Positions 15,188 through 58,104 of a stretch of DNA of 64,000 nt are shown piece after piece. The number at the start of each line of letters is the position of its first letter. Position 1 is the first letter of the stretch. The position numbers were made by a program, and so were the translations under genes. This DNA comes from Schmidtea polychroa. Taxonomy: Eukaryota. The DNA is taken from contig CM097885.1 in NCBI GenBank assembly GCA_044892525.1, positions 81,654,001 to 81,718,000 of the forward strand. Direction: 5' to 3'. A model generated the notes under the pieces. The model did not search any database. It was not told the origin of the DNA and was given only the letters and a program-made list of their open reading frames with translations.

Positions 15188-15220
15188 TACTTAAATAAAC
15201 ACGGAAAAGACTATTAATAA

Positions 15221-36218: not shown

Positions 36219-36760
36219 CCAATTCTCTCTCGGGTCTCGATTCCCCTGCTATTACGAACGAACTTGAAGAAGCGACGTTATCTCGTGACTAATCCTTAAT
36301 GTTTTGCACTTGTTTAAACAATGCTGAATGTAATTTGATGTTCCGTTCTAATATAACTGTTCGATTTTCTTTGATTGTGTAAATTGTATGTATGATTTGC
36401 TACGGTTGAATTGCATGAGAGAAGGATCACGAAAATATAGTAGAAACTTAAATGTCGTACCTTTTGGACCAGGGTCGGACCGAATGATGCGTAAAGAATG
36501 GGTAAGACCTTCTATGGCACCGTAGAACCCGAACCGAGAAAGGGTTAGGAGTAGTCCTAAGGCAGGGGCTCACCTGCTAACTCTTTCCAACCCGTGTGAG
36601 CAGTACCAACGTGGAACATCACCACGGGCTCATATGTGGGAATATGCGAATGATCATTTGGAGTGCGTGAGGGAAGGATCTGAGTAGAATAATGACACCT
36701 GATGTGTATGATAATCATGCCTATATATTTTCTTTCCCCCACATACGCCAACATGATTTT

Positions 36761-36778
36761 TGGGGGCTCAGCCGGGAT
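36761..36778 (+). promoter_or_regulatory. Primer-binding site, tRNA-Pro type
   Basis: TGGGGGCTCAGCCGGGAT matches the canonical tRNA-Pro PBS TGGGGGCTCGTCCGGGAT at 16/18; it lies 7 nt after the LTR end. Confidence 0.88.
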
Positions 36779-37230: not shown

Positions 37231-37710
37231 ATGTCAGACGCTAGACAACATCTACAACAGCTAAGCCGGTTCGTCGAAATAGAAAATGATTCAATAAAAA
37301 CATTAAGGGAAAAACTGAAACAAATAGAACTGCTAGAACAACAAAGCCACAACGCACCGCTGATATCCAAACAAAACTTTCTAACCGACAGATTAGGATC
37401 AACAAATACCGATACCGACTTGTCGATTCATTACCAATGGTTTCAGCAACGTCTCGACGACCCAGCGCTGAACATCGAATATGTGAGGATACGCGAACGA
37501 GTCAAAACTCTGTCTCAGCGGATACGAACATCAATAGTAGAGAAAGCAGCGGCCTTGAGAACTTGTAACATTTGCAAGATGCGACCTGTCAAAATTCTGA
37601 TTCTACCTTGTGGGCACCTTAGCCATTGTGACGAATGCGCCGCCAGTTTAATCCGGTGTTCTATGTGCACATGTGTAATAAAAGAGAAGCACACAATCTA
37701 CTTCAGTTAG
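37231..37710 (+). CDS. Coiled-coil protein with C-terminal IAP-type C3HC4 RING (putative E3 ligase), 159 aa
   Basis: CNICKMRPVKILILPCGHLSHCDECAASLIRCSMCTCVIKEKHTIYFS at the extreme C-terminus; no BIR visible. Confidence 0.85.
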   Translation: MSDARQHLQQLSRFVEIENDSIKTLREKLKQIELLEQQSHNAPLISKQNFLTDRLGSTNTDTDLSIHYQWFQQRLDDPALNIEYVRIRERVKTLSQRIRTSIVEKAAALRTCNICKMRPVKILILPCGHLSHCDECAASLIRCSMCTCVIKEKHTIYFS

Positions 37711-38292: not shown

Positions 38293-38812
38293 GAGATATT
38301 AAGGCCGAGCTGTTGAAAAGTCCAGCCGGTCAGGAAAAATTAAAACTGAGCTGTGAAAAGTCCAGCCAGTCGGAGATATTAAGGCCGAGCTGTTGAAAAG
38401 TCCAGCCGGTCAGGAAAAATTAAAACTGAGCTGTGAAAAGTCCAGCCAGTCGGAGATATTAAGGCCGAGCTGTTGAAAAGTCCAGCCGGTCAGGAAAAAT
38501 TAAAACTGAGCTGTGAAAAGTCCAGCCAGTCGGAGATATTAAGGCCGAGCTGTTGAAAAGTCCAGCCGGTCAGGAAAAATTAAAACTGAGCTGTGAAAAG
38601 TCCAGCCAGTCGGAGATATTAAGGCCGAGCTGTTGAAAAGTCCAGCCGGTCAGGAAAAATTAAAACTGAGCTGTGAAAAGTCCAGCCAGTTCGGAGATGA
38701 AGAAGATTGAGCTGTTGAATAGTGCCAGCCAGTCGTAAGATCGAGTTGTTGAATAGTCCAACCGGTCAGGAGAAGAAGATTGAGCTGTTGAAAAGTGCCA
38801 GCCAGTCGTAAA
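38293..38812. repeat. Tandem array: 5 perfect 80-bp units (each a dimer of ~40-bp subunits) plus degenerate subunits
   Basis: Units start at 38293, 38373, 38453, 38533 and 38613; shared core GAGCTGT(T)GAAAAGTCCAGCC(G/A)GTC. Confidence 0.95.
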
Positions 38813-39475: not shown

Positions 39476-42400
39476 TTGATTCGTGTAAGCAAAGGCAACA
39501 CGATATCATATTTTCATTGTAGACATCCATCCAACCAAGTCAATTCAGAACCAGCTCAAGAGGAATCCAGAGAATATACAAACAACCCAGGAAAAGCAAT
39601 TCAGAACCCGCACAAAGGAAGACAATATCAAAACCGAACTCGACCAATTCAGCAGACGCTAACCGTAGAAAATCCACGTGAAAAGACAGAAAAGAGTAAA
39701 AGGAAAATCACGGATAAACCCAACCTTAGATCTTCAAGTAAGCCAGGAGACGTATTATTTTCAGGAGACGAATTAGATCAACTCAAAAGAGGACGATCAT
39801 TTAGGCAGCAGAGAGGAATATCACAAGGAGCAAAAAGACCCCACAAAACACCGATATACGATCAAGAAAACCCCACAGCCGGACATACGCCCAGCCGATC
39901 TAGAAGTAGAGAAAGTCTATCCGATATAACCAACAACCTAACCGGGTCAACAGAAGAATTATCCGTCCATAGCTTAGCTACATCGCTGGAAAATTTAAAA
40001 GAAATAATAGAGTTTCAAGAACCAATTAAGATGAATGTGGTAAAAACTGACGAGTATAAGGAAAAATTTAGAGGCGAACCATTCAACGGGAATGCGAACA
40101 AGTTGGCAACGTTCATAACCAACTTTGAAGTCTATATCGATGTGTGTGGATGGACACCCGAAGCAATTAGTAAACGAATGCCTCTGTTTTTGTGCGATAG
40201 CGCACTCGAAGTATATCTGGAAGCAAAAGAAAGAAATACGAAATTAGACAATTGGGAAAACATCAAAACATTTTTGAGAAAAACATTCGGAGCCAGCAAA
40301 CCAATAAATCAAGCGTTAGGTGAACTGGCAAGTAGAAAACAAAGAGCAAACGAGTCAATTACGTTATACGCAAGTGAATTGCGAAGATTGGCAAAGAAGG
40401 CCATGAACGGAAACTTGCCGGAGGAAAATTTAATTGGTTACTTCATAGAAGGACTACGCCGAGAAGAGGTAAGGGCCTCGGTGGGATGTCAAATGTGTAA
40501 AACACTAGAAGAAGCCATAGATTGGGCCACAAGATGCGAACTACACCTCCCAGCACAAATGAACGTCATGCAAGAGGAGGGAAGAATCGCAACAGCAACG
40601 GTGAAAACGGAAAATGGGGATAACAATAATCATGAACCCAAGATGAATCAGTTTATACCAGGAGCACATCAAATTTTCAAACCACCACAAGGACGATCAA
40701 ACGGGAATAACAGTGAACGCAACAACTCGAACAATGGGAACAACTTTAATAATCGACGAAATATGAACGATAACAAACAATGCCGAACATGCGGTAAACC
40801 AGGACATTGGGATAGAGATTGTTACCGAAACGCAAATTGCAATAGGTGTGGACGACGAGGACACACGGAAAATATATGCCAATCGAGAGGATGTTTTAAC
40901 TGCGGGCAACCAGGTCATATCTCAAGAGACTGTCGAGAAAGGAGCCAACAGCAACGACCACCACAGCGAAATAATAACTATGCACCAAATCCGCAACGAC
41001 AAAGTAATCCTAGTGAGGGAAAGCAAATGAATGTGATGCAAGAAATTTCACAAATGAAGCAGATGATGCAACAAATGATGAGACCGAGACAAGAGCAAGT
41101 ACCACAACCAACCCAGAATATACGCATGATGAGAAGCACCGAGAATCTTAACAATTATGAAGTGCAACAACATGCACAAGAATGGCAAAGACTACAAGCT
41201 GAAGAAGAAAGGATAAAAAGAGAGCGAATTCAGCAGCGACAAGAACAACCACTACGAATAAATATGATGAGGATGGTAAAGGAGATAAAGGAGCAATATT
41301 GTTACAATTACGGTAAAAATCCAAGAGTTGTACCTATGAGCGAACCAGAGAAACCGAAAGAAACAATTACAGCAGCAAAAAAGGAAAATTCAACAACACC
41401 ACTAAAAGGAAATCAGAGAATTCAGAAAATATTTTGGAAAAAGATAAAAGATAAAATCGAAAGAGAAAATGAGCAAACAAAAACAGAAGCAGAAGCAGAA
41501 AATAACGAAAATGAAAAACAGATTAATCATCTAAAGCATAATATGATACGAGAATTAGACTCAGAGGAGCTAACGATACTCGAGAACAACAAGTTAAAGA
41601 AAGTACCAAGAATGAGAAATTTACGAATTAATATGATGAGGACAACAAAGAAGGTGTTGTCAACAGATGACGATGAGGATTATGTGAGTAGCCTTGGTGG
41701 AGAAATGTTACAGTTAAATGAAAATATCGACCAACTAAGAGAAAAGATCGGAGCAGAGGAAGATGAAAGAGAAAGCGACGTGACAAGCGAAAGCGAAGAC
41801 GAGAATATCGAAATGAAATTGAGAAAAGAAAGAGAAGAAGCGATAAAACAAGTAAAGGAAATACTTCCAGTAGTGGTAAGAAACCAGGAATTCATTGACT
41901 TCATACCATACCGACGCTTCATACAAAAGATAATGAAACTAGAAAGAAACGAAAAAGACCTAATACCAAACGAGGAAAAAGCGATAATAAAGAAGTATAT
42001 GGAAAAAATGAAACAAGCGGAGACAACACGCTATGTAATAAAAATCGGAACGAGTAAAGGACTCGAGAGAATATGGATAAAAAATGCAGTCACAGACGAG
42101 CTTTTTGATTGGATAAGAGAACATTTGGGCAGCTCGAGAAAGAAAGAATACCTGTATCAATATCAAGGAGAACAAATCAAACCAGACATGCACCTAATAG
42201 ATGCATTGATCTGGCCAGGAGAAACTCAAATATTGAAATTGTATAAAGAGAAACAACCAGCAAATATTCACGAATGGGCTAAAGACGCCAAGGCCGAATA
42301 CGATTTTAACATCAAGCTGAAGCTGGAACAAATAAAACAATGCACCTTGCGACGAAATCTAGATAAATTAATCAAACAAATTCAAGAACAAGTCGAAGAT

Positions 42401-45400
42401 AACTGGGATTTACTCATAGCAAGACGAACTCCAGACATGCATGAGCTAATGAGCCGATTACGAGATACAGAATTGCTCAGGATGAGCGATTGGAGAACCA
42501 TAAATTTGATCCACAAATATGGCAGGTTGAAAGAAACGCAACCGCAGAAATTAGAAATAACCATATGGTTACCAAACGAGGAGAAACGACGAATAAAGAT
42601 GAGTAATCAGAGTACGGTAGATGACTTAGTAACCAAGATAAACCAAGAGATAACGGAAAAAGTACGAAGCGAGAGTAGCGACGGGATGATAGATGACGTA
42701 GTCATGATGTACGATAAAATAATATTACGGGCCGAAGACGACACCTCGCTAAGCGAAATGGGAATGTGGGATAATCATCAAATCATCAGAATATTGCCCA
42801 TGGACGAATTCCGAACAAGAGATATAACATACCAGAAAGAAATACGAGACAGGATGAAAACGCTATATCAAAAATCAGTAGAAATAATTGAAATTCATCA
42901 ACAGTGGTTAAAAGAAAAAGAGCTTCAAGGAAAAATAAAGAAACTAAGTGTGAGATCCTGCAGACGAACCCCATGGGAAAGGACGTGGAATGCGGAAAAC
43001 AAAGAATGGAAAATCAGGAAAGGGATTTTCGTGGAAACAGACATTGGTGAGATAGAAAGTGAATCAGAAGAAGAGGAAGATGAACCTCCAAAATACGAAG
43101 AGGACGAAATAGAATCGACATCGGACGACGGAAGCGAAACGGATGTTACATCAGAAAGTGAAACGGAAACCAGACATATTCATGCGATGAAAAAGAAAGA
43201 ACGCGAATATGCCGATATGGATAGCGAAGAAGCGATGGAAGCTCGAGAACGAGAAGAGAAGGAAAGATATAAACAATTAGGTGATATCTTAGCAACGGGA
43301 ACAAAAAATCAAAAACGTCAAGTAATAGCATTGGCTAACATCATCCTAAAGACATCAGAGAATATCCACAATCTAAGAGAAATGGCGAAAGCGATTGAGG
43401 AATACAGACAATATAACGAATGGTACCCAGAACAGCTAGAACAAATTATTAGGAAATGGAGAAACCAAGAATGGGCACAAGATACCCAGGAAAGGTATCG
43501 TATCCGAGTCAAGTATCCCGACAAAAGCATTGAGGATACAGAAGTACATCCAACAACAAAGATCAGAGAGTTAAAAAAGAAATTAGCATACGAAACTCCG
43601 TTTCACCTACAACTATTCGGAAAATCGTTGGATGATAATGCAGATGTCGGAATAACACCCATGAGATTGGGGGAGATCAATGTATTGACAATGGCAGAAA
43701 CATTGGGAAAACCGATTAAAAGGAAGAACAAATCCAGTAAACCTACGAAAGGTAGCTTGAGTACACCAAGCCCTAACAAAGTGGCAAGTAAAACGAATGA
43801 AACCGAGGAAATCGAGGAAATTATATTGGAAGACAGCGATGAAGGAGCTGGAGAAAGATCACCAATTCTGGTAAGATGGCCGACAGGAGCCGAAATATGG
43901 ACAACAAGCCAACCGTCAACTAGCTATCAGCAGCCAAATAAGCTGAGTATCGAGGAGATTATCGATAATACAACAGAAACCGAAACCGACGAACAATTCC
44001 AACGACAGAAAGGACCAACGAAAGCAACACCAGAAGGTCAAACGGACAAAATAATAGACGAATGGAACGAATGGCTAAGAAATAACGATAGCTCATTGCC
44101 AAGAACGGATAACGAGAGAAACCCGAATTATGAAAATACAAGGGAAGCCGGAACAATGATGGAAAAACGGGCAAAAGGGAGACCCAAGAAGCAAGGAGAA
44201 AAACCGGAATTTAAAACTAGAGAACAACTGAAACAAGAACAAGGACAAGTCAGATTAGAGAAACTGGATAAAATAGTGTGGGATCTAAAAGAGGCCCAGC
44301 CAACTATCGAAAGAGGCGAAAAATGGATACGAGAGCTAGTAAAAGATATGCTAATAATAACGAACCCACAATTGCGACGGTTATGGCAACGAAAAGTAGC
44401 AAGCGTAGACGCCAGACAACTATGGAATACAATATCCGGAATAATTCCGAAATTAATCAAAGAGAAGACAAAAACCACTAAAACCGATTGGGAAGAGACA
44501 AGAAGAGTAATTGAACAATTAACTTTAAACGCAAACGACGACGAACATCATTTAGTAGTATTAACGTATCTAATGTACAATTTGATGGGATTAGCAGCAA
44601 GGAAAATACCTAACAAACAATTCGCAAATCATGTAGAAATGACCGTCACAATCATTGAAAATACAATCGAACCACATATCATCCGCGCCGGTGGGTGGAA
44701 AAGACTCATACAAGCGCCACGAAAAAACGAGCAAGAGAGATCAATGCAAATTCGGTTGAAGAAGTTACTACATGAGCTAGAATGGGAATTGCCATTGAAA
44801 GACCCAGCCAGCAGAAAAGCGTCGATTAATTCACTAATGATGACCATGATGATATGGATGCTCTGCACCAGTGGAGCCGCGGGATTTACTATTTACGACT
44901 GTGACAATTCGATAATAGGAGAAAGATACTCCCTGAGAGATATAGAGGAATGTAGACAGGCGTCTCCGAATAAATTAGATATAGTAAAGAAGAAAGTCTC
45001 CTATCACGTATACCAAGAATCAGATTTCATTAGAACGCAAGCTAGAGAATGCGTAGTATCAAAGAAAGTGTTGGCATATTACTGTGGACAATACTCATAT
45101 TCAACCCTTATATTACCGGGATTAGATAAAGAAATAGTACCTATACAACGGGAAGACTGTAAAGAGCTTTTTAGAACCGGAGCAATGAGAATCAGGGATG
45201 GAGTAACAATACACGGACAAAGCGGAATGATCAAGACAGAAAGTATCTATGTCGCTGGACGAGTAAAATCAACTGATGGATCATGTAACGGAGGCACATA
45301 TACGATCCGAGGAGAGGTGATATCGGGAGTAGTAGTAATTGAGTCCTACACAGTGGAGTTGAAGGAATACGAAGCACAATTCGACGCGAACAACTATCAA

Positions 45401-48400
45401 ATGAAAACCAACCCAGCATGCAGAGCTACGGAAAACGTGTGTAGAACGGGAATTTCGACTATAATATATGAAGCTAACACCCAAAAATGCCGACTCCAAT
45501 TGTTAAAAAGTGCTCTATTCAATGAAGTAAAAGGAGAAATTTACGAAAACGAGGATGACGATGAAGAGAATGGAAACGTAAGGATGCGAAATGGGAAACC
45601 AGTTCCGCCATCCCCCAAAGAAAAGAGACTCACAACCCAAAAAACACCAACGGCATTAATTACAGATGACCCAGATATCGGCATGAGATTCATTAGAGAA
45701 AAAGAGACCACCAAATGTGACAGCATAGTATACCGGACGAACTACGCAGGTATCTACATGTCCAGGCAAGTAATAGACCGAGCAGTGGGAAAGGTAGCAA
45801 CAGAGGACGTAAAATTGTACCTGTACGCCAATAACAAAATGGACTTTTTATTTCACCGAGGACAAACGACAATGCAAAAAGTGTATTACGATCTTATACA
45901 AAATGACTGTTCATTGAATAAAGAGATACTAAAAACAAAATTAGCCATCGCAATAACACACCCAGATAACACAATGCCATCACTCCCGTTACCGGATGGA
46001 CATTTTGGTAGAATGGTGGGAGAGGTAATGTATACATATGCATGTACCAAGACATTTGCGCGACTGCCAAGAAAGCCCACAATTCCACCAGGGAAATGTG
46101 CAAACGAGTTAGAAATTAGTTACAAAGGGCGAAACAGATTCGTTCAACCCGTCACTCGAATAATGAACCCAATTGGATTTTACCCGAACACCTTTAACTG
46201 TTCAAATGCATACGGACCGTTATATGAAAAACCCGATGGGAAATGGATAATGTTACCGGTAAAAACCGAAGTACAAGAACCTAAAAAGTTTGGACTAATA
46301 GAACTCGCAACAGAACAAGATTTCAAACCAATTGATGTGTCAAAAGCAGGTATGTACTCACCGGAGGATTTAGAAACGGCACGATTAAACGTATTATTCC
46401 CAGCAAGACGGGAATCCATTCTATCGAATATGGTTACCATAACTGGGGGAACGAATTTCCAGTCAGGCCCCAATTACGAACTATTATTGTCACCTGATCA
46501 TTTTCAACAAGCCACGTCAAACATGATGAAAGCAATGTGGGGAAGATTTCTAGTGTTCGGTCAAATGATGGCAGGAATATTGGGAATCATCTTAATTATT
46601 CAGATCGTCAGAGTAATATTAACTCAAATGTTAGCGTGTTTTGATATCTATAAGAGAGAAAAGAAGGTAAATTGGAAATTAATAGTAGGCTTTCTACCAT
46701 TTTTGGCGAAAACAATGGTGTTGCACGGTCATTCTAAAGACATACACAGAATAAAACGATTGATCAAAATACTGACAAAAATAAAAGGAACTGACGAGGA
46801 AGTCGGTAGACGATTTCGGAAAACGATGTATGATGAAGCAACAAGGACGCAACTGAAAAAGAACAAACCAAAATTCTTAGACAGATTTAGGAATCGATCA
46901 AACAGCAGCGATAGTGATGATGACGACAACGGGAATGACAAATACCCATATCCAAGTAGAAACCCGAATGAAAAGCCAATAGAAACAGCACCATATTGGG
47001 AGAAAGAAAAAACAAATACCTGGATAGCCAACGGAAGTTACATACCACCAGATATCGTTGGACAACAAACAGCTTTGACCATGACACAAAATATGTATCC
47101 ACAGTTACCAAGTCAACCAGGAATGAACTATATGCCGACCCGAAGAACGAAAAGTGTAGACCAAGCGGACGACGTAAGAACGATAGCAGTGATGAGTTCA
47201 CCAGGAGGTGCGGCAGTAACAGTCATGATCCAAATCAACGGGAAAGAGACAAGCGCCATGATAGATACCGGAGCAAACGTATCAGCAATAGCAATAAACC
47301 AAATACCCAGTAAATGTTGGAAGGATATCGAACAAACAACTATCCATATTATTGCATGCAGTAAAGAAACCGTAGACGTAGTAGGAAGATGGTGGACTAC
47401 GTTACGATATCAGGATAACGAAATTGAAACGTATCTAGCGGTGATACCCAAACTGAGTGAACCATGTATAATCGGAACGGATTTAATGCCGGAATTATTT
47501 AAGGAAGTAGTAATCGATTTAACAACAATGTGTCTAAAAGACAAAATGGGTAGAATATGCAAGATGAACGCAATAATTAGATGTCCGGAGAAAATAATTG
47601 TACCCGCAAAATCACAGATGATATGTCAAATAAAAGTGGATGCAGGAATGGAAGGAGAAGTCATTTTTGAGCCAAGCAAATCATTCGAAAAACGACGAGA
47701 ATTACCATTAGCAAGAGAAATAATAACAATAAATGAAGACGGGGAAATACCAATTAACATCACAAATTTCGAGGAAGAAGACAAGATCATATATGAAAAT
47801 GAAAGATTGGGTAGATTGACACCCATGATAGACATCGAATTACCAAAAATCACCAACGAAACAACGAAAGCGGACGAATTATGGATAATTGATAGCACCT
47901 TGCTAACGGAAAAAGAAAAGGAGAGACTTCAACAATTATTGATAGAATATAAAGATATATTCGCAATTTCGGATTTAGATTTGGGAGCATGCGATGTTAC
48001 ATTACACGCAATACCATTAATAGACGAAACTCCAATCGCACTACGCCCATACAAACTAGCAGAGAAGCAAAAAGAGATAGCCGAAGCCGAAGTACAAAAA
48101 ATGCTAGATGCACAAGTGATCGAACCAAGTTGTTCGCCATGGCAATTTCCAGTAGTCATGGTGAAGAAAAAAGACGGTACTCAGAGATTCTGTATCGATT
48201 ATCGGAAATTAAATGCAGTAACAAAAAGAGACACATACCCGTTACCAGACATCAATGAGATGTTACTTATGTTACAGGGGGCCGCATATTTTACATCTTT
48301 AGATCTGAAAAGCGGATATTGGCAGATCAAAGTCAAGGAGGAAGACAAAGAGAAAACAGCATTCACATTGGGCCGAGATCTATACCAATTCAGGAAAATG

Positions 48401-51400
48401 CCGTTCGGACTGACCAATGCCCCAGCATCATTCCAGAGATGTATGAATTTTGTCACACACGGGATCAAGCAGTGTATGGTATATATTGATGATTTATTAA
48501 TATATTCAGCAACATTCGAACAACATTTGGAAGATATCAGAAATGTGTTCGTTCGATTACGACAATGGAAACTGAAACTTAAACCATCCAAATGTGATTG
48601 GGCAAAAGAAAAAGTTACGTTCTTAGGACACATAGTGTCAGCAAAAGGCAAAGAACCAGATCCAAGAAACCTAGAAAAAATAAAAACATGTCCAGCACCA
48701 AAAACTGTCACCCAAGTTCAAGAATTTCTCGGATTATGCGGATATTATCGAAAATTCATCAAAAACTATGCAGGTATTGCGAAACCAATACAGGAATTAG
48801 TGAAAAAGGATATTTCATTTATTTGGGGTGCAGAACAACAAAAAGCGTTTGAGACATTGCGAGATAAATTAATTGAAGCCCCAATACTAGTACATCCTGA
48901 TTTCAAGAAACCGTTCCTATTAGCAACAGATGCAAGTGGATATGCAGCCGGAGCAATATTAGGACAACTGGATGAAGAAGGAAAAGAAAGAGTAATTGGA
49001 TACTACAGTAGAACGTTTAAAAAGCACGAGAAAAACTATTCCGTAACCGAGAGAGAAGCGTTAGCAATCATACAAGCAATTAAACATTTTCGATATTTGT
49101 TATGGGGACACGAAATATGTATCACCACGGATCATCAACCATTAGTATGGCTTGGTCAACACAAAGAAGCTTCAAGTAGATTGATGCGATGGGCAATGCA
49201 GTTACAAGAATATTCACCGTTCATAAAATTCAAAGCGGGAAGAGCGAATGCCAATGCGGATTGTATGTCCAGATTTATCTTTCCAGATTTAGTAGATCAC
49301 GAAATGCAACGAATATGTCTGATGGTAGCAGAAGATTTAGATTTTTGCCAATTACGGAAAGACCAACAAGAGGATACAGAGTTGAAGCAAATCATTGAAT
49401 ATGTGAAAACAGGGAAAGCAGAGGTATATGAGAAAGATCAAAAATTGAAGGAGCACATGGATAAACAACGACATCGATATATTATCGAGAAAGATTGGTT
49501 ATTGATAATGGATGGCGAGAAAAGACTGATGTGCATTCCCGAGAATAGACGTAAAGATCTACTAACACAATACCATGACGGAAGACTCGGAGGACATATG
49601 TCATCTAAAAAGACGTTGGCACGAATGAAACAAAAATATTTTTGGCCTACATTGACCGAGGATGTAACGGAATGGGTGAAAAATTGCATAACTTGCGCAA
49701 CCAGAAAAAACACGGGAACAAAATGGAAGGCACCATTAAAGCCAATGCCAGTGCCAGCAGAACCGATGACAATGATATCAATGGACGTAGTCGGTCCACT
49801 ACCAGAATCAGATAGAGGAAATATATATATATTAGTAATCACAGATTATTTGACAAAATTCCCCGAAGCATTCGCAATGGCAGATCAGAAAGCAAGAACA
49901 ATCGCAAAAATATTAGTAGAGGAAATATGTTGTCGATATGGAACGCCGAAACAAATACTGACGGATCAAGGAACGAATTTCATGAGCGAAATAATGAGCG
50001 AAGTCACCAACTACTTCAAGATCGCAAAATTAAGAACATCACCGTACCATCCACAAACTAATGGTATGACAGAAAGATTCAATGGAACACTGATTCAAAT
50101 GTTATCAAATTATGTCGATCGTCATCAACGAGACTGGGATGAATATATAAAATTATGCCTCATGGCTTACAGAATGTCGATTCACGCGTCCACAAAGATG
50201 AGTCCGTTCAAGTTGATGTACGGCAGAGAATGCAATATGCCAATGGATTTAGAATATCAGCCACCGATATCACAGTACATGGAAATAGACGATTATGTAA
50301 CCAAGTTCAAGGAAAGAATGCAGGAAATCTGGGAAACCGCAGGATTGAATATAAAATTTTATCAAGAAAGTTACAAAGAGTTACATGATAGAAAGAAAAA
50401 CGTCAAACAGCATACGTTTCAAACAGGCGATTGGGTGATGATTGAAACACCAGAATTAATTCCAGGAACCACCAAAAAATTACAACGAAACGGTAAAGGG
50501 CCGTATGAGATTCTATTCGTCGGAGAAACTAATGTAAGAGTACGATTAGTGAACAACCCTTTTACAAGGCCAATATATGTAAATGTTGCACGATGTAAGC
50601 CAATTCCGAAAACCGCCACCAGTCAGCCAGAAGGACGTACACTAACGACAAGATCACAAACGTATAGAATAAACATGTTACAGCAAATAAACGAACCAAC
50701 AGGTAATCGATTAGGGTTACAACCATCAGAAGCCGAGAAAATCATAAGGGAAGTAAAAGTTAAAATGCCCGGATGGGCAGAAGACAGATTAGATTTTGAG
50801 ATATTGGGAGGTCTGCTAACAATGATCGAAAATTATGCAAACCGAGAAAGAACACACCCATTGCTCAGGGTAGTTAAAAGTCAATGGCCTATATTATTCA
50901 CGATCACAGACCACTACGGAGACACACCCCTGCACAAGCTTTTAAAGGTGGGTAGTAACGAACAGATATTAGAAACAATTGAAGCATTTCGCGATTGTAA
51001 CATTTCGACAGATCAAGAAAACAACCAAGGTTACACTCCACTAATGATAGCAGCCAATCGGGATAAAGCTAAAGATATTATCATCGCATTACTCGAAACT
51101 GGGTCAAAGATAACCACACAAGATCACAACCAGAAAAATGCATTACATCATGCAATCGAAGGGAAAAGTACGGAAGCCTTCATAATCTTAGTAGATCTAA
51201 TATCATACGAGGATAATAGAGAAATAGGAAACATGTATGACGGGCTATTAACTGCAATCAAAGAGAAACTAACAACAATTACTGGAATACTAATTGCATG
51301 GAGGAACCCGATAAAAAACGACTATATGGTAGATATAAACGAAACATTTACCAAAGGAGAAAACACCTTGATGAGAGAAGCGATGAGAGGACATCACCTA

Positions 51401-53911
51401 TTCGAAATTCCAAATCAACTACTACAACGTGACATAAAATTCTCAAATCACAAAGACGAACAACTAATCAGAAAACGAATTACCAACTTCGAAAAAGCTA
51501 TATCTCAATTTACCGATAAAGTACAAGTAAAATTTTGGGACACCGTGAGTGTTTTACATATGATGGAAACTATGAACAACATTCGAGAAAACTACCTAAG
51601 TATTATTCAAGTTCTAACGGCAGAGGAACGCATTAACAGTTCGAACAAGAAAAAGATAAAAATGAAGAAAGTAAAAGCAAGAGAGTCTGAGGAACAAGTC
51701 GATCAACCAATAACCGACATAGCAACAACAAGTAAACCAAAGATAATAAACTCCGACCAAGAGATAGTAGTACGTAAGGCTAAAGAAGTATTCTTTGAAG
51801 AAATGCAAGATCTATCCGATGAAGCGATACTGGCAAAAATAACCAAAACAGTACACACCTACGCAAGAGATCAGACCACAAATCTAGACATAGGAAAAAT
51901 AAAAACATTTATACCACTAGCATTCACCTTACCAACAAAAGACTCAAGAACACCATTACAACAAGCCATTTTAGCAGCAAAAGAAAACAGAGCAATAACC
52001 ATCATAAGAATCCTTAGAGACTTCGGAGAAGAATCTAATGCAAAAAATGAACAAGGGGAAACAGCAATGATGTATGCAGCCATAACAAATATACACCCAA
52101 AAACATTACATATACTACATCAATCAGGTTCGAGACTTGACGAAATATCAAACGAAGGAAATTCCACCATGGATTGGGCAACAATACAACCAAACTTGGA
52201 AATGATTAGATTCATTTGTAAAAATGCTACAAGAACTGAGGTAGAAAATATCTGTAAAAACACGTCACAGTTCCAATGGAACACGATACGGATGAACTTA
52301 GAAGCCATGAAGTTGCTGCTAACATGGAGAATACCACAAAGCAATAAATATGCAATAAATATAAATGAGTTCTACGAAAACGGAGAAAATGCTATGGTTA
52401 AAAATACACTAACGAAAGGAGGAACTCCGAAAATCATAATGATCGTATTAAACAGGGAAGATCTCAAATTCACGCAGAATCTACACGAACAAAAGCGAAT
52501 CGGGAAACATCGTCGGATACAATTAAGAGAATTAGTGAAAGAATGGAATAGAAAGAGACATGTAGCAACAGGCAGAAAGGAGTTCGAACCCGAAGCAAAA
52601 TTAGCAAGAAACAGAGTGCTAACGGCATACCGCAGATTGTTGAATGAGATAAATGTCGAGGACGACATTTTAAACGATAGAGGGGGAGATAAAGACGATA
52701 AAGACGATAAAGACGACGATAATAATGAAAAAGGTCGAAACGGGAATAAAGAGAAAGAGAAATCAGAGGAGAATAATCAAGAAAATAACGACGCGAGCAG
52801 GAAAAAAGAGGAAAATAACCCGAGAAACCGAAGGAAGCAAGAAGAAAAGACGAATAGTGGAAAACAGAGGGTATGCCTACTTTTTACCAACAAAGAAATG
52901 GAGACAAATATGATGATAATGATACTCGTACTAACAATGGTGGAAATGATAACAGCCCAGGGAGGAATGAGAACGATAAAAGAAGCCAAAGAAACGGAAA
53001 ACAAGGACAACAAAGAGGAAGAACTAAAACAAGAAAAGAAAAAACAAGTACAAGAGCAGCAATGGGATCTAAAAGAAGAATGGGATTTAAAAGAAAGGTG
53101 TATATTAGGAAGATGTATGTCTAGAGCTTATCAGAGACTAGTGTTAAAAAATGAAGATGCAGAACCAATAACGGAAGTAAGAATACAAGAAGCATACCGA
53201 AATCGAGAAGGGAAGAGAATAACGAAAGTCAAAGGGAAGGAGGTACACCTGGGAAAAGGAGGTGAGGTAGTGATAACGCAACTCCAGCCAAGAAAAGAAC
53301 ACAAAGTCTGCATCGCAAGATTAAGACCGGGTGAAGACTGTCTACAATATGTAATACAGCAACAACCTCCAAAAGAATACACAATATGCATCTGGAGAAA
53401 AGATACAGCGAGAGAATGTCGACGATACCCTGGGAAAAGAGGGAAGAAAAGAAAAATCGATGATGAAAAAGATGAGCAAGGAAAACGCAAGAAAAACAGT
53501 GAGAAACATCAAGACAATTATGTATCCGAGGAGGAGATGGAGAAAATACAAAAAATGGCAAAGGAAGGTATGAACGAGGAAATAGCAAGAATACGAGGAA
53601 TGATGAAAGGAAATGGCAAAGACGGTAATCTAAAAAGCACAGAAACAATATCAACAATAACGAGCAAGGAAAAAGCGGAAATTATAAGCATAAAACAGAT
53701 GATGTGGATCAGCGGCATAATAATAACAGGGGCCTTTTTAATCATAACGGGGGGGACAATAAAAATAATCAAAGATAGACGGCATCACGGAGAACTAGAA
53801 ATGGCCAGAATAAGAAATTTTCAACATCGTGTAAAACGACCAAGTAATATCAAGCAGGAACAGTGGGTGGAGGCCTGGAATGCTCAGCGCCCTCCAAGCT
53901 CACGTATATAG
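39476..53911 (+). CDS. gag-env-pol: 4,811-codon Gag-accessory-Env-Pol-ankyrin-membrane polyprotein (first in-frame ATG at 40031; 39476 is TTG)
   Basis: Stop-free frame with CCHC knuckles, DTG protease, YIDD RT, RNase H, HHCC+DDE integrase and the extra domains listed separately. Confidence 0.95.
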   Translation: MIRVSKGNTISYFHCRHPSNQVNSEPAQEESREYTNNPGKAIQNPHKGRQYQNRTRPIQQTLTVENPREKTEKSKRKITDKPNLRSSSKPGDVLFSGDELDQLKRGRSFRQQRGISQGAKRPHKTPIYDQENPTAGHTPSRSRSRESLSDITNNLTGSTEELSVHSLATSLENLKEIIEFQEPIKMNVVKTDEYKEKFRGEPFNGNANKLATFITNFEVYIDVCGWTPEAISKRMPLFLCDSALEVYLEAKERNTKLDNWENIKTFLRKTFGASKPINQALGELASRKQRANESITLYASELRRLAKKAMNGNLPEENLIGYFIEGLRREEVRASVGCQMCKTLEEAIDWATRCELHLPAQMNVMQEEGRIATATVKTENGDNNNHEPKMNQFIPGAHQIFKPPQGRSNGNNSERNNSNNGNNFNNRRNMNDNKQCRTCGKPGHWDRDCYRNANCNRCGRRGHTENICQSRGCFNCGQPGHISRDCRERSQQQRPPQRNNNYAPNPQRQSNPSEGKQMNVMQEISQMKQMMQQMMRPRQEQVPQPTQNIRMMRSTENLNNYEVQQHAQEWQRLQAEEERIKRERIQQRQEQPLRINMMRMVKEIKEQYCYNYGKNPRVVPMSEPEKPKETITAAKKENSTTPLKGNQRIQKIFWKKIKDKIERENEQTKTEAEAENNENEKQINHLKHNMIRELDSEELTILENNKLKKVPRMRNLRINMMRTTKKVLSTDDDEDYVSSLGGEMLQLNENIDQLREKIGAEEDERESDVTSESEDENIEMKLRKEREEAIKQVKEILPVVVRNQEFIDFIPYRRFIQKIMKLERNEKDLIPNEEKAIIKKYMEKMKQAETTRYVIKIGTSKGLERIWIKNAVTDELFDWIREHLGSSRKKEYLYQYQGEQIKPDMHLIDALIWPGETQILKLYKEKQPANIHEWAKDAKAEYDFNIKLKLEQIKQCTLRRNLDKLIKQIQEQVEDNWDLLIARRTPDMHELMSRLRDTELLRMSDWRTINLIHKYGRLKETQPQKLEITIWLPNEEKRRIKMSNQSTVDDLVTKINQEITEKVRSESSDGMIDDVVMMYDKIILRAEDDTSLSEMGMWDNHQIIRILPMDEFRTRDITYQKEIRDRMKTLYQKSVEIIEIHQQWLKEKELQGKIKKLSVRSCRRTPWERTWNAENKEWKIRKGIFVETDIGEIESESEEEEDEPPKYEEDEIESTSDDGSETDVTSESETETRHIHAMKKKEREYADMDSEEAMEAREREEKERYKQLGDILATGTKNQKRQVIALANIILKTSENIHNLREMAKAIEEYRQYNEWYPEQLEQIIRKWRNQEWAQDTQERYRIRVKYPDKSIEDTEVHPTTKIRELKKKLAYETPFHLQLFGKSLDDNADVGITPMRLGEINVLTMAETLGKPIKRKNKSSKPTKGSLSTPSPNKVASKTNETEEIEEIILEDSDEGAGERSPILVRWPTGAEIWTTSQPSTSYQQPNKLSIEEIIDNTTETETDEQFQRQKGPTKATPEGQTDKIIDEWNEWLRNNDSSLPRTDNERNPNYENTREAGTMMEKRAKGRPKKQGEKPEFKTREQLKQEQGQVRLEKLDKIVWDLKEAQPTIERGEKWIRELVKDMLIITNPQLRRLWQRKVASVDARQLWNTISGIIPKLIKEKTKTTKTDWEETRRVIEQLTLNANDDEHHLVVLTYLMYNLMGLAARKIPNKQFANHVEMTVTIIENTIEPHIIRAGGWKRLIQAPRKNEQERSMQIRLKKLLHELEWELPLKDPASRKASINSLMMTMMIWMLCTSGAAGFTIYDCDNSIIGERYSLRDIEECRQASPNKLDIVKKKVSYHVYQESDFIRTQARECVVSKKVLAYYCGQYSYSTLILPGLDKEIVPIQREDCKELFRTGAMRIRDGVTIHGQSGMIKTESIYVAGRVKSTDGSCNGGTYTIRGEVISGVVVIESYTVELKEYEAQFDANNYQMKTNPACRATENVCRTGISTIIYEANTQKCRLQLLKSALFNEVKGEIYENEDDDEENGNVRMRNGKPVPPSPKEKRLTTQKTPTALITDDPDIGMRFIREKETTKCDSIVYRTNYAGIYMSRQVIDRAVGKVATEDVKLYLYANNKMDFLFHRGQTTMQKVYYDLIQNDCSLNKEILKTKLAIAITHPDNTMPSLPLPDGHFGRMVGEVMYTYACTKTFARLPRKPTIPPGKCANELEISYKGRNRFVQPVTRIMNPIGFYPNTFNCSNAYGPLYEKPDGKWIMLPVKTEVQEPKKFGLIELATEQDFKPIDVSKAGMYSPEDLETARLNVLFPARRESILSNMVTITGGTNFQSGPNYELLLSPDHFQQATSNMMKAMWGRFLVFGQMMAGILGIILIIQIVRVILTQMLACFDIYKREKKVNWKLIVGFLPFLAKTMVLHGHSKDIHRIKRLIKILTKIKGTDEEVGRRFRKTMYDEATRTQLKKNKPKFLDRFRNRSNSSDSDDDDNGNDKYPYPSRNPNEKPIETAPYWEKEKTNTWIANGSYIPPDIVGQQTALTMTQNMYPQLPSQPGMNYMPTRRTKSVDQADDVRTIAVMSSPGGAAVTVMIQINGKETSAMIDTGANVSAIAINQIPSKCWKDIEQTTIHIIACSKETVDVVGRWWTTLRYQDNEIETYLAVIPKLSEPCIIGTDLMPELFKEVVIDLTTMCLKDKMGRICKMNAIIRCPEKIIVPAKSQMICQIKVDAGMEGEVIFEPSKSFEKRRELPLAREIITINEDGEIPINITNFEEEDKIIYENERLGRLTPMIDIELPKITNETTKADELWIIDSTLLTEKEKERLQQLLIEYKDIFAISDLDLGACDVTLHAIPLIDETPIALRPYKLAEKQKEIAEAEVQKMLDAQVIEPSCSPWQFPVVMVKKKDGTQRFCIDYRKLNAVTKRDTYPLPDINEMLLMLQGAAYFTSLDLKSGYWQIKVKEEDKEKTAFTLGRDLYQFRKMPFGLTNAPASFQRCMNFVTHGIKQCMVYIDDLLIYSATFEQHLEDIRNVFVRLRQWKLKLKPSKCDWAKEKVTFLGHIVSAKGKEPDPRNLEKIKTCPAPKTVTQVQEFLGLCGYYRKFIKNYAGIAKPIQELVKKDISFIWGAEQQKAFETLRDKLIEAPILVHPDFKKPFLLATDASGYAAGAILGQLDEEGKERVIGYYSRTFKKHEKNYSVTEREALAIIQAIKHFRYLLWGHEICITTDHQPLVWLGQHKEASSRLMRWAMQLQEYSPFIKFKAGRANANADCMSRFIFPDLVDHEMQRICLMVAEDLDFCQLRKDQQEDTELKQIIEYVKTGKAEVYEKDQKLKEHMDKQRHRYIIEKDWLLIMDGEKRLMCIPENRRKDLLTQYHDGRLGGHMSSKKTLARMKQKYFWPTLTEDVTEWVKNCITCATRKNTGTKWKAPLKPMPVPAEPMTMISMDVVGPLPESDRGNIYILVITDYLTKFPEAFAMADQKARTIAKILVEEICCRYGTPKQILTDQGTNFMSEIMSEVTNYFKIAKLRTSPYHPQTNGMTERFNGTLIQMLSNYVDRHQRDWDEYIKLCLMAYRMSIHASTKMSPFKLMYGRECNMPMDLEYQPPISQYMEIDDYVTKFKERMQEIWETAGLNIKFYQESYKELHDRKKNVKQHTFQTGDWVMIETPELIPGTTKKLQRNGKGPYEILFVGETNVRVRLVNNPFTRPIYVNVARCKPIPKTATSQPEGRTLTTRSQTYRINMLQQINEPTGNRLGLQPSEAEKIIREVKVKMPGWAEDRLDFEILGGLLTMIENYANRERTHPLLRVVKSQWPILFTITDHYGDTPLHKLLKVGSNEQILETIEAFRDCNISTDQENNQGYTPLMIAANRDKAKDIIIALLETGSKITTQDHNQKNALHHAIEGKSTEAFIILVDLISYEDNREIGNMYDGLLTAIKEKLTTITGILIAWRNPIKNDYMVDINETFTKGENTLMREAMRGHHLFEIPNQLLQRDIKFSNHKDEQLIRKRITNFEKAISQFTDKVQVKFWDTVSVLHMMETMNNIRENYLSIIQVLTAEERINSSNKKKIKMKKVKARESEEQVDQPITDIATTSKPKIINSDQEIVVRKAKEVFFEEMQDLSDEAILAKITKTVHTYARDQTTNLDIGKIKTFIPLAFTLPTKDSRTPLQQAILAAKENRAITIIRILRDFGEESNAKNEQGETAMMYAAITNIHPKTLHILHQSGSRLDEISNEGNSTMDWATIQPNLEMIRFICKNATRTEVENICKNTSQFQWNTIRMNLEAMKLLLTWRIPQSNKYAININEFYENGENAMVKNTLTKGGTPKIIMIVLNREDLKFTQNLHEQKRIGKHRRIQLRELVKEWNRKRHVATGRKEFEPEAKLARNRVLTAYRRLLNEINVEDDILNDRGGDKDDKDDKDDDNNEKGRNGNKEKEKSEENNQENNDASRKKEENNPRNRRKQEEKTNSGKQRVCLLFTNKEMETNMMIMILVLTMVEMITAQGGMRTIKEAKETENKDNKEEELKQEKKKQVQEQQWDLKEEWDLKERCILGRCMSRAYQRLVLKNEDAEPITEVRIQEAYRNREGKRITKVKGKEVHLGKGGEVVITQLQPRKEHKVCIARLRPGEDCLQYVIQQQPPKEYTICIWRKDTARECRRYPGKRGKKRKIDDEKDEQGKRKKNSEKHQDNYVSEEEMEKIQKMAKEGMNEEIARIRGMMKGNGKDGNLKSTETISTITSKEKAEIISIKQMMWISGIIITGAFLIITGGTIKIIKDRRHHGELEMARIRNFQHRVKRPSNIKQEQWVEAWNAQRPPSSRI
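40031..40933 (+). other. gag: Polyprotein domain: Gag capsid-like region plus three CCHC zinc knuckles
   Basis: EPFNGNANKLATFITNFE...FIEGLRREEV; CRTCGKPGHWDRDC, CNRCGRRGHTENIC, CFNCGQPGHISRDC (40781-40933). Confidence 0.92.
42032..43695 (+). other. Polyprotein domains: three ubiquitin-like (beta-grasp) modules and a partial CARD-like segment
   Basis: UBL-like segments at about 42032-42250, 42548-42800 (STVDDLVTKI...EDDTSLSEMG) and 43495-43695 (TTKIRELKKKL...LQLFGKSLDD); CARD-like segment at 42347-42523. Confidence 0.55.
44260..44715 (+). other. Polyprotein domain: Bcl-2-like fold
   Basis: TRRVIEQL...HLVVLTYL...TIIENTIEPHIIRAGGWKRL aligns by eye in spacing with Bcl-xL FEQVVNEL...RIVAFFSF...TYLNDHLEPWIQENGGWDTF; the NWGR motif is absent. 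Confidence 0.7.
44821..46740 (+). other. env: Polyprotein domain: envelope glycoprotein, chuvirus-G / class III-like (signal peptide, Cys-rich ectodomain, TM)
   Basis: Signal SLMMTMMIWMLCTSGAAG, mature start FTIYDC...YSL..IEEC at 44885, many Cys, TM WGRFLVFGQMMAGILGIILIIQIVRVIL at about 46540-46622. Confidence 0.78.
47190..47530 (+). other. Polyprotein domain: retropepsin aspartic protease
   Basis: AMIDTGANVS (DTG at 47264-47272) and IIGTDL; followed by a dUTPase-like beta segment without clear catalytic motifs (about 47575-47830). Confidence 0.92.
47950..49270 (+). other. Polyprotein domains: reverse transcriptase and RNase H
   Basis: SPWQFPVV, RFCIDYRKLN, LDLKSGYWQI, MPFGLTNAP, YIDD (48482-48493); TDASGYAAGAIL, YSVTEREALA, TDHQPL. 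Confidence 0.97.
49550..50620 (+). other. Polyprotein domain: integrase (HHCC, DDE, GPY/F)
   Basis: YHD..GGH...CITC; SMDVVGP; TDQG; NGMTERFNG; GKGPYEI. Confidence 0.96.
50906..52410 (+). other. Polyprotein domains: two ankyrin-repeat clusters
   Basis: YGDTPLH, QGYTPLMIAA, KNALHHAI (about 50906-51390); SRTPLQQAI, QGETAMMYAA, EGNSTMDWA (about 51935-52410). Confidence 0.85.
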
Positions 53912-54079: not shown

Positions 54080-54439
54080 ATGGAGCGAATAGGCGAGGAA
54101 GTAAACCACAGTACAACAACCGAGGAGATGTGGAAACAACAATGTGCAATGTTAACTCAAGTGATTTCGAATTTACAAGAACAAGGACTCGCTGTACAAA
54201 GAAGCTTAGTCGAAAGTTTAAATAAAGGCTTCAATTATGTAAGAATAATCGAAGACCAACGAATGAAAATAGAACAAATGCAGCGAGAGATAGACCGAAT
54301 ATCACGATACAGCCAGGTGCAAGAAGAGGAGTTAATAAGAATCGCGGAAGAGATGGAGCGAGAGGAGATAGAAGACTGGTCAGAATGGTTAACCAACAGG
54401 GAAGAGGGCGGACAAGAGGCCGACTCTTCCAGCCAATAA
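54080..54439 (+). CDS. Accessory coiled-coil ORF (~119 aa from ATG 54080), function unknown
   Basis: Glu/Gln/Arg-rich helical sequence with the element's A-rich codon style; the listed start at 54056 is TTG. Confidence 0.55.
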   Translation: MERIGEEVNHSTTTEEMWKQQCAMLTQVISNLQEQGLAVQRSLVESLNKGFNYVRIIEDQRMKIEQMQREIDRISRYSQVQEEELIRIAEEMEREEIEDWSEWLTNREEGGQEADSSSQ

Positions 54440-54528
54440 ATATAACCTAAAATAGCAATGTAAATAAATGTAAATAAAAATACGAAACTGTACCGGTAAC
54501 GAATATATGTATATATATAATTATAGAA

Positions 54529-55917
54529 ATGGATAAGCGACAACGAGAAGAATTCAGAGAAATTGTTGAACAAATTAGAAAGTCCACCACAATTCGAATA
54601 CACAACCATGTAACGTGTGGAATATGCAAGAGCTTATTAAGAGAACCTCACCAAACCAGATGTGGATGCAGAATGTGCAGAGAATGTGTAGAGGAGATAA
54701 TAAAGAAGGGACCACAATGGTGCCCAGTATGCAAAGAAACAATGATAACAAGTTTGGGAGATACAAACGAAGATAAAGCAGCTGTAAAAGATATGTTGAA
54801 TGCAAACCTAGGATGTAAAAACACCCCATGTAATTGGCGAGGAGTGATATGGGAAGTGAGGCAACATACGGAGCAATGTGAGTATAAAATCAGTCAATGC
54901 AAACGTTGCCAAGAAGAGATTAAAGTCAATGAAGAAGCAGAACATCAAAGTCGATGCGAAGAAAGAATAGAGAAATGCGAGTATTGCGGAGAAAACGACA
55001 CCTGGAAGAAACTAATCAGTCAACATCACAACATACAAGAGGAGAAAGTGTGCGCAGAATTCAGAGGAGAATGCCCCAACAAATGCGATAAACCCGGAGT
55101 AATAAAACTCGCTCAACATCTAAAAGAGTGTGAAAGAAAAAAGATAACGTGTGTGCTAGGAAAATGGGGATGTCCGAAACAATTACACCGAGGAGAATTA
55201 CCCCAACACCTAGCAGAAAACGTATCAACACACGCGGAAATATGGTCAACGGTTGTACAGGAAAACGAAAGGAAAACCGAAAACTTAGAAAGAGAAATAG
55301 TCTCGCTAAAAGCGTTGGTAAAAGAACTATTGGAAGAAAAGGAAGCATTTGAAGAGGCGAGAACAAGTACAAAGATACAGACAGATCTAGTAGAAACTAG
55401 CAACATTATGGTGAAAGAATTACATCAAAAAGTAAGCGAATTAAACCTCAACGAATTAATACCAACGGCTCCGTACATATGGAAAATAACGGGAATAAAA
55501 GAGAAGATGCAGAGAGCGAGAAATGGAAAGGATACAACATTACTAAGTCCAGCATTCTACTCATGGAAAAACGGGTATAAAATGAAAATGAAAGCATACC
55601 CCAATGGGGATGGAAGTGCATACGGAACGCATTTCTCAGTATTCTTCTTGATGTGCAAAGGGCCATACGACGAGTTAATAGAATGGCCATTCAAAGCAAA
55701 AATAGACCTTGCAATGATGAACTATCAAAGTATACACGAACAGAGTTTCCATACAGCGGGAAACCTCGTATGTTACCAAAGGCCCTTGGAAGAAGAAGGA
55801 CCAGCAACTGGAGCACCAAATTTCATCCTACAGCGGAAAGTAGAAGACATGACGAGAAACGACACTATATACATAAAAATAGCGGTGAGGCGTGATGGGA
55901 AGAGTAGGACTGAGTAG
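54529..55917 (+). CDS. TRAF: Intronless full-length TRAF-family protein (RING, TRAF zinc fingers, coiled coil, MATH), 462 aa
   Basis: CGICKSLLREPHQTRCGCRMCRECV...CPVC; CKNTPCNWRG; YIWKI, SPAFYS..NGYKM..KAYPNGDG...HFSVFF, WPF. Confidence 0.93.
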   Translation: MDKRQREEFREIVEQIRKSTTIRIHNHVTCGICKSLLREPHQTRCGCRMCRECVEEIIKKGPQWCPVCKETMITSLGDTNEDKAAVKDMLNANLGCKNTPCNWRGVIWEVRQHTEQCEYKISQCKRCQEEIKVNEEAEHQSRCEERIEKCEYCGENDTWKKLISQHHNIQEEKVCAEFRGECPNKCDKPGVIKLAQHLKECERKKITCVLGKWGCPKQLHRGELPQHLAENVSTHAEIWSTVVQENERKTENLEREIVSLKALVKELLEEKEAFEEARTSTKIQTDLVETSNIMVKELHQKVSELNLNELIPTAPYIWKITGIKEKMQRARNGKDTTLLSPAFYSWKNGYKMKMKAYPNGDGSAYGTHFSVFFLMCKGPYDELIEWPFKAKIDLAMMNYQSIHEQSFHTAGNLVCYQRPLEEEGPATGAPNFILQRKVEDMTRNDTIYIKIAVRRDGKSRTE

Positions 55918-56135
55918 GGAGACGAATAATTTTGTATATACTAATTGTAAATATCGGCGTATATATCCAGTAAAATATTATATAGTAGTGTAGAAAATTC
56001 CCCCAAATCTACCAAAGGTAAACTTAAGCGAAAAATTCCTAAAACAACTCCTATAACGAATTATAAAAATAAATAAATAATAAACCAGATATAAGCGTAC
56101 AACGTTAAGTTAATGATATCGTTATTTAGACAAGG

Positions 56136-57173: not shown

Positions 57174-57347
57174 AGATAAAAGGAAAGATAAAAAATATAA
57201 AAATCGGGACCTGTATCTCAACCAAAAAAATTAATGGTACAGTAAAAGTATGAAAGGGACTGTAACCCTGATTATAAAATAACATATAAATGTATAAGTA
57301 TAAGCCGCACTGTAGCGCAATTATTAATTATGTATATATTATAGAAA

Positions 57348-58049: not shown

Positions 58050-58104
58050 TTAAAGATGAATGATCAATGTAAATAATTGTAAATAAAAATTTTCGTATAG
58101 TAGT

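Follow-up and report, generated by a model that had tools for sequence, protein, structure and literature searches.

A young planarian Ty3/gypsy element with Env between Gag and Pol in a single frame, and its probable membrane-threaded polyprotein

How might one uninterrupted reading frame deliver a capsid, an envelope protein and a set of replication enzymes to the two sides of a membrane? The question is raised by a 64,000-nucleotide (nt) stretch of the Schmidtea polychroa genome (GenBank assembly GCA_044892525.1, contig CM097885.1, positions 81,654,001 to 81,718,000; hereafter the window), in which positions 39476-53911 of the + strand, the strand of all element features given below, form a single stop-free frame of 4811 codons. 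The original prediction, read from the letters of this stretch, described one frame without stop or frameshift and a chain of domains from Gag to a second ectodomain with its membrane segment; the frame is indeed stop-free throughout, and Pfam bears out the order from Gag to ankyrin. In full, this order is Gag, a region with ubiquitin-like (Ubl) and Bcl-2-like matches, a signal sequence, Env, a transmembrane segment (TM), protease (PR), reverse transcriptase (RT), RNase H (RH), integrase (IN), ankyrin repeats (ANK), a second signal, a second ectodomain and a second TM. We consider it quite probable that this is an intact Burro-type Ty3/gypsy Gag-Env-Pol element whose product is threaded through the membrane of the endoplasmic reticulum (ER) four times and cut by host signal peptidase and by its own protease. 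Cleavage would yield the capsid and accessory proteins, the enzymes in free form, a fusion protein of class III and another surface protein.

The frame lies in a 30.6-kb long terminal repeat (LTR) retroelement (32568-63156), which also contains further open reading frames (ORFs). Its 5′ LTR (32568..36753; 4186 nt, TG...CA, with a 6-nt terminal inverted repeat) and its partner, the 3′ LTR (58971..63156), show 1 mismatch over 4186 nt, and a 4-nt target-site duplication (32564-32567 / 63157-63160) bounds the whole; the element is an intact, recently inserted, very young copy. A primer-binding site (36761..36778), located 7 nt past the 5′ LTR, complements the 3′ end of the host tRNA-Pro(TGG) and is also found in two diverged copies. 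The paired TG...CA repeats with their target-site duplication, the tRNA primer site after the 5′ LTR and a Pol that runs PR-RT-RH-IN with catalytic motifs are the features of a Ty3/gypsy (Metaviridae) element. When the genome was searched with Env, the best 75 of 2825 candidates were scored and 75/75 were 99-100% identical; because the frames around 39 of these 75 span 4724-4817 codons (in one of them the match contains a listed stop), we reject both chance and an artefact of assembly as the source of the open frame. The C-terminal module gave a broader spread, with 121 of 642 candidates scored and identities of 84-100%. This genome also harbours two sister families, with frames of 3334 and 3565 codons, that share the domain order and again give Ubl and Bcl-2-like matches.

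Within the frame, Gag (40031..40945) comprises a capsid domain (retrotrans_gag, amino acids [aa] 236-329) and three CCHC zinc knuckles (best at aa 471-487). The accessory region that follows (40946..44830) contains coiled and acidic stretches, weak ubiquitin-like units and a weak Bcl-2-like domain; its profile matches are low (ubiquitin E 0.012, PI3K_rbd E 0.005, Bcl-2 E 0.02, and by Pfam Bcl-2 at aa 1691-1741 with E 0.095), and the sister families show the same ones. Downstream of Env, Pol (47192..50674) consists of a protease with the motif DTGA (RVP, aa 2583-2674), a spacer of ~150 aa, RT with YIDD (aa 2896-3054), RH (aa 3117-3246) and an integrase with a GPY motif (aa 3354-3544). The ankyrin-repeat region (50675..52675; repeats at aa 3833-3907 and 4174-4214) is separated from the integrase by a protease-type site at aa 3732-3735. 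The spacer is dUTPase-like in Burro elements, but Pfam matched no such motif there or elsewhere in the proteins of the window element.

The segment at 44885..46543 is predicted to be the ectodomain of a class III fusion protein akin to chuvirus G and herpes gB. It matches the Pfam family Monjiviricetes_fusion (E 7e-72), its best viral matches are glycoproteins of chu-like viruses (E 8e-40), and its structure model (118-row alignment, mean pLDDT 88) retrieves herpesvirus gB from the PDB in every Foldseek match listed (best E 1.7e-13, TM score about 0.4). A profile search of PDB sequences likewise returned gB in 32/32 matches, which are individually weak (best E 0.046), and the full gB-type cysteine framework is retained. 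The viral glycoprotein that had been claimed at 44885-46540 is thereby substantiated, and since profile, model and fold all lead to gB or chuvirus proteins, the alternative that came with that claim, a region that is not a viral glycoprotein, falls away. Among 1030 representative homologues (E up to 0.001), the top ranks are polyproteins with Env upstream of the protease, and the next are stand-alone proteins of about 650 aa. In a FastTree tree of 128 Env regions, whose rows were picked by similarity to the window Env and carry no clade test, the 21 polyprotein-embedded Envs fall on one side of a branch (SH 99), and such Envs may have a single origin; a Bel/Pao-type protein in this tree (P0111, DUF5641 then glycoprotein) groups with the stand-alone glycoproteins, away from the Gag-Env-Pol branch. 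We also observed a chuvirus-type glycoprotein with N-terminally fused Ig domains (P0143). A scan of JGI metagenomes for the hosts of relatives P0002-P0047 gave 499 pattern matches and 0 confirmed.

The hydrophobic segments of the original prediction are found at aa 1788, 2364, 4479 and 4747. The first, internal signal sequence 1 (44831..44884), follows a basic cluster and a protease-type site at aa 1784-1787. By pattern, 17/21 rows have a signal-like h-region immediately upstream of the mature Env start; P0004 has one too, two rows are N-terminally cut and one is ambiguous. The Env TM (aa ~2357-2383), which has the score of a membrane helix in every row listed, lies at 46544..46723 together with a conserved, marginally hydrophobic helix-kink-helix (aa 2398-2416). 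This fifth segment, overlooked at first, is best read as membrane-associated on the cytosolic side without crossing; a true TM is unlikely. Because the alternation of signal and TM is conserved across relatives whose Env is 29-42% identical, the proposed alternating topology is the best reading of the sequences.

Translation would begin in the cytosol, possibly at an ACG codon at 39710; signal 1 would act as an internal signal anchor, sending Env into the lumen with cleavage before F-T-I-Y-D-C; TM1 would stop transfer, so that PR-RT-RH-IN-ANK is made on the cytosolic tail of Env; and signal 2 and TM2 would do likewise for the second protein. Pol needs a cytosolic location to work. Gag and Pol would at first be held at the membrane of Env, which would favour assembly there and bring the PR domains together, until PR cuts at [IMV][NHCA]x|hydrophobic, including just upstream of both signals, and frees the cytosolic parts. 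The likeness to flaviviruses that had been proposed holds for the topology alone. In a flavivirus polyprotein the viral protease frees the capsid from an internal signal, signal peptidase frees the lumenal glycoproteins and the enzymes stay cytosolic; flavivirus E has a class II fusion fold, whereas the fold here is class III, and the window element reverse-transcribes and integrates; the parallel is one of strategy. A protease-type motif lies before signal 1, and the Gag-side proteins would therefore be cut from that signal, which is where the flavivirus analogy fits. The membrane-tethered Pol that had been expected probably applies to the precursor and not to the cleaved enzymes, because a protease-type site stands at the PR N terminus.

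The candidate sites of the protease are enriched in the frame. A strict motif, [IM]N[VMA]|[MVIL], occurs at 8 sites compared to 0.93 expected (maximum 5 in 500 shuffles), and the broad motif given above occurs at 18 sites compared to 6.1 expected, none of them in either ectodomain. Broad-motif sites stand at the PR start, the PR end, RH/IN, IN/ANK and just before both signals, and it is a reasoned reading of the sequence that they form a cleavage map of the element's own PR. The start of translation is likely a non-AUG codon, with the ACG at 39710 (codon 79) as the candidate. Conservation of the frame among copies begins near this codon, whereas the first AUG is codon 186 (nt 40031); position 39476 marks only the stop-to-stop limit of the frame. 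These comparisons used 10 copies, chosen so as to have long open frames and to cover a range of divergence. The ACG is present in 10/10, each time flanked by A at −3 and G at +4, but its invariance alone is weak evidence, as 12 of 58 conserved ACG codons are also identical in all 10, and 10/10 copies likewise retain an AUG at codon 185 or 186. The stretch from ACG to the first AUG (39710..40030), a likely N-terminal extension, has dN 0.17 and dS 0.75, and an LRS motif after the ACG resembles the AUG-started N termini of P0002, P0003 and P0046. The leader is 2956 nt long, contains 53 AUGs and includes a tandem array of an 80-nt unit (38293..38811); a processed mRNA is possible. Contigs from a run whose RNA nature is a guess reach all 30 bins, mostly at 90-99% identity, and among the matches listed none has a joint across env, although such contigs cannot reveal splicing, strand or level.

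The end of the frame (52910..53911) encodes a second predicted type I membrane protein, with signal 2 (aa 4479-4495), a charged ectodomain whose beta-rich core (aa 4528-4655) has six cysteines, TM2 (aa 4741-4766) and a 45-aa tail. This tail ends in S-x-I in 10/10 copies, which we take to be a PDZ-ligand pattern, and three of seven relatives with a clear TM have an S/T-x-hydrophobic C terminus. Of the 11 relatives whose integrase is complete, all but P0004 have a second signal after it, and in 7 of these 10 the signal is followed by a clear TM; P0002 and P0003 are near relatives and count as nonindependent, and sister families B and C were read by eye. The content of this slot varies, with Ig in P0006 (E 1.5e-5) and an FN3-like domain in family B (Atlas score 0.90, 10/10 best matches in the FN3 clan, no more than a lead), and TM2 is missing from the copy of family C that was examined. 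Several relatives, namely P0002-P0005, P0032 and P0033, have two or three aspartic-protease-like domains, one of which sits between integrase and the second signal, where the window has ankyrin repeats. These comparisons suggest a conserved slot with variable content after integrase, which likely holds a second surface protein.

The window's second ectodomain itself is hard to place. Its model is all-beta at low confidence (pLDDT 57.5), with no Foldseek match at E 0.001 and a best VIA Z of 7.1 to assorted common beta-sandwiches, and an FN3-like motif is seen by eye only. No homologue was found among 203 candidates, no usable match in Atlas and no family in Pfam, and comparison with the ectodomain of the sister families gave no profile match (hhalign probability 0.1%). 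Two candidates were rejected: a chromodomain, from a weak PDB sequence row (E 0.47), and a designed-TPR match of the sister-family alignment, made of four 8-bit pieces.

Env is maintained by strong purifying selection, as judged from substitutions between copies: its ectodomain has dN/dS values of 0.064/1.30 and 0.009/0.28, a ratio of about 0.03-0.05 (values are given for 4 of the 10 copies). The most distant subfamily stands at dS of about 1.1-2.2, that is, at synonymous saturation, with the whole frame still open; the first of the Env values is against this subfamily, as are 0.012/1.11 for RT, 0.083/0.77 for the second ectodomain core and 0/0.62 for TM2. The second ectodomain diverges more than Env in 10/10 copies, and its core has dN/dS <1 in the 4 copies, about 0.11; 5 of the 6 core cysteines are kept in 10/10 copies and the sixth in 6/10. 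We rejected positive selection on this ectodomain, given the core ratio and a stalk value >1 in two close copies that rests on 0-1 synonymous changes. One examined copy of the distant subfamily has 4062-nt LTRs that are 100% identical, and because the window LTRs differ at 1 base, very recent insertion applies to at least two subfamilies; that distant copy also has an open counterpart of each of the seven accessory ORFs. Within single copies (L027-L046), synonymous divergence is uneven along the frame, for example 0.01 in RT compared to 0.27 in TM1, which suggests recombination between subfamilies. Pairs of copies ~26.4 kb apart (G000:C1:72655758/72682151; C2:107337400/107363812), the LTR-to-LTR distance, have the spacing that tandem elements with a shared LTR would show, as would a duplication made in assembly.

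Several observations weigh against the proposed threaded polyprotein. Products, cleavage and topology are predictions from sequence, the topology calls come from home-made hydrophobicity scales, and on such a scale the helix-kink-helix reaches +1 to +5 and keeps a small chance of being a TM. The protease motif was defined after the sequence had been viewed, does not carry over cleanly to relatives, and before signal 2 is retained in only 6/10 copies. Env has one sequon and no furin site; the second ectodomain has no N-glycosylation sequon, is 37% charged and carries a basic cluster; and signal 2 is weak, in an acidic context and with one Glu in its core. The 53 leader AUGs speak against a simple path to the frame start, and no clear purine run was seen in the 39 nt read upstream of the 3′ LTR, where a polypurine tract would lie; a GC-rich stretch (58930-58970) directly precedes that LTR.

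Some of these points lend themselves to other explanations. The frame could be real while its proteins come mostly from spliced, trans-spliced or internally started RNAs or from regulated termination, leaving Gag, Env and Pol in unequal amounts, in contrast to the equimolar output of the original prediction, and the full polyprotein a minor product. The leader AUGs make simple scanning of the genomic RNA unlikely, particles need far more Gag than Pol, other single-ORF LTR elements (copia, Tf1) use subgenomic RNA or selective decay, and a stretch of 489 nt bounded by GT..AG (50379-50869) is absent from one DNA-type contig, which, as DNA, is no demonstration of splicing. Yet signal 1 is a hydrophobic stretch within the frame for which no conserved start of its own is apparent, and in families with only 29-42% Env identity the frame runs unbroken through every junction, which separate mRNAs would not need; we therefore hold this explanation to be rather improbable. 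We give still less credit to the idea that the C-terminal module is cytosolic or inert cargo in the window family and that Env alone crosses the membrane. It would suit the charged, sequon-free ectodomain behind a weak signal, the absence of Pfam, PDB-sequence, Atlas and homologue matches and of a profile match to the sister families, and the lack of the module in P0004 and of TM2 in the family C copy. However, the position of the signal after integrase is conserved in nearly all relatives, TM2 shows no nonsynonymous change against its dS of 0.62, the core ratio is low and its cysteines are largely kept, and in relatives the slot holds extracellular-type domains, namely the Ig of P0006 and the FN3-like lead of family B.

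A different issue is where the two surface proteins would act. They may serve within the animal, in cell-to-cell spread or ER assembly anchoring, and not on free infectious particles, which would make this an intracellular or intra-organism retrotransposon with a fusogen, a serious contender that in our view falls somewhat short of an even chance. Planarian virus-like particles of this kind were not found in a literature search of titles and abstracts, BURRO1 RNA is reported in differentiated tissue upon PIWI loss (PMC8532177), and the PDZ-ligand-like end is shared by all copies and by three of the seven relatives. Against this, family B and Smed_errantivirus_2 are far closer in Env (about 5/251 differences) than the window family is to its own nearest counterpart (~59% identity), and transfer between hosts may fit this, and Env keeps its full gB-type cysteine framework. 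Herpesviruses split gB from its partners. By comparison, we only tentatively propose that the polyprotein of this clade of retroelements encodes a two-glycoprotein entry system, with a conserved class III fusogen and a fast-evolving, exchangeable receptor-like protein, PR freeing both signal anchors in the manner of a flavivirus and translation starting at a non-AUG codon. With similar reserve, the receptor-like protein might combine an FN3-like, Ig or other beta-sandwich with a stalk, a TM and a PDZ-type tail, and act in attachment or cell-junction targeting.

Outside the long frame, the element carries further cargo. Upstream, a 159-aa ORF (37231..37710) has a C-terminal C3HC4 RING (zf-C3HC4_3, E 3e-8), is open in diverged copies at 41-43% identity and ends in what we take to be an IAP-like tail; neither it nor the other element proteins have a BIR by Pfam. 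Downstream, a complete TRAF-like ORF (54529..55917) with RING, zf-TRAF, coiled coil and MATH (E 3e-25) is open and 68-69% identical in diverged copies (dN 0.18, dS 2.4). It is accompanied at 54080..58740 by charged or coiled proteins of 119, 345 and 233 aa and a 211-aa protein, and two diverged copies contain an open counterpart for every downstream ORF of this interval. The 211-aa protein (58105-58740), with a signal, short ectodomain and TM, is predicted to be a third type I membrane protein; at 23-24% identity in the diverged subfamily, it is the fastest-changing ORF of the element. The set of TRAF-like, RING, Bcl-2-like, Ubl and ankyrin proteins suggests interference with host death and immune signalling. 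Each LTR also contains an ORF of 254 codons (35454..36218, repeated at 61857-62621) with no Pfam family match, which stays open at 40-42% identity in a diverged subfamily whose LTR has no blastn match. The primer source, tRNA-Pro(TGG), forms a huge tandem array with a 475-nt period from G000:C1:130901009 onward (L047), with 1555 pattern matches genome-wide. Elsewhere in the window lie a DDE_1 transposase with CENP-B/Tc5 HTH domains (5522-6787, − strand), presumably pogo/Tigger-like; decayed pieces of another retroelement with an integrase core (23416-26684); and long inverted-repeat pairs (1751-3898 and 13925-16442; 95-97% complementary) that are probably non-autonomous DNA transposons.

The architecture, which the original prediction did not recognise from other LTR elements, is already in print, so that the window element is a new family of an already described kind. 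Section 7 of a 2019 review describes planarian Burro elements with env in frame between gag and pol (PMC6431247), and Chary and Hayashi describe GAG-ENV-POL Ty3/gypsy elements with a gB-type env in Nematoda, Bryozoa and Platyhelminthes, with reference to Sacco 2022 (PMC13524379). As that review presents them, the Burro/GYPSM1 elements of dugesiid planarians exceed 30 kb and have one ORF of about 4,800-5,100 aa, compared to 30.6 kb and 4811 codons here; they share a Gag with three CCHC knuckles, Ubl and Bcl-2-like motifs, ankyrin repeats and MATH/TRAF and RING cargo, as well as an in-frame env that sits between Bcl-2 and PR and matches mononegavirus glycoproteins. Of this cargo, ankyrin, MATH and RING are strong in the window element and Ubl and Bcl-2 weak. 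In the window element MATH/TRAF has an ORF of its own, located downstream of the polyprotein, whereas it is inside ORF1 in S. mediterranea and upstream in D. tigrina Burro, and the BIR and dUTPase-like motifs that HHpred found in Burro have no Pfam match here (PMC6431247). The review likens env to gypsy, baculovirus and paramyxovirus fusion proteins, in contrast to the gB-like, class III fold seen here, and its section 7 contains no second membrane protein, topology or cleavage sites (PMC6431247).

With the "ancient errantiviruses" of GAG-ENV-POL HSV/gB type, the window element shares gene order, gB-type env and Ty3/gypsy Pol (PMC13524379): its gB-type class III ectodomain is flanked by signal and TM, and it is multicopy and intact. 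The nearest Env there is that of Smed_errantivirus_5, at about 75/128 residues (~59%, counted by eye), and because identity over these 128 residues is so limited, we take the window element as a further family, one that is not among the six S. mediterranea families of that paper; sister family B differs from Smed_errantivirus_2 at about 5/251 Env residues, by eye, as would suit a Schmidtea-like planarian host, and family C is close to Smed_errantivirus_1 (PMC13524379). That paper describes three ORFs and lists no LTR or primer-binding site for the Smed elements, and its main text is without the terms "polyprotein", "fused", "single ORF", "ankyrin" and "Burro" (PMC13524379). Anakin is also an LTR element with a chuvirus-type glycoprotein of the same Pfam family, but is Bel/Pao, whereas the window element is Ty3/gypsy (PMC7642597). 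Canonical Drosophila errantiviruses differ in having a separate, F-type (baculovirus-related) env ORF 3′ of pol, instead of an in-frame gB-type env upstream of it.

In print we found neither the second membrane protein nor the cleavage map nor the ACG start described, on all of which Grohme 2018, Jurka 2007 and Sacco 2022 may bear. If the second protein is an attachment factor, this would be a retroelement with split fusion and attachment, which we did not find described. The known elements of this kind are here joined by a family that is very young and fully intact, whose LTRs, primer site and cargo genes have been mapped, and with an Env predicted to be class III and under strong purifying selection. 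This family thereby offers testable issues: how Gag and Pol are balanced in a single-ORF enveloped retroelement, whether planarian Burro elements produce infectious particles, and what role the second protein plays.

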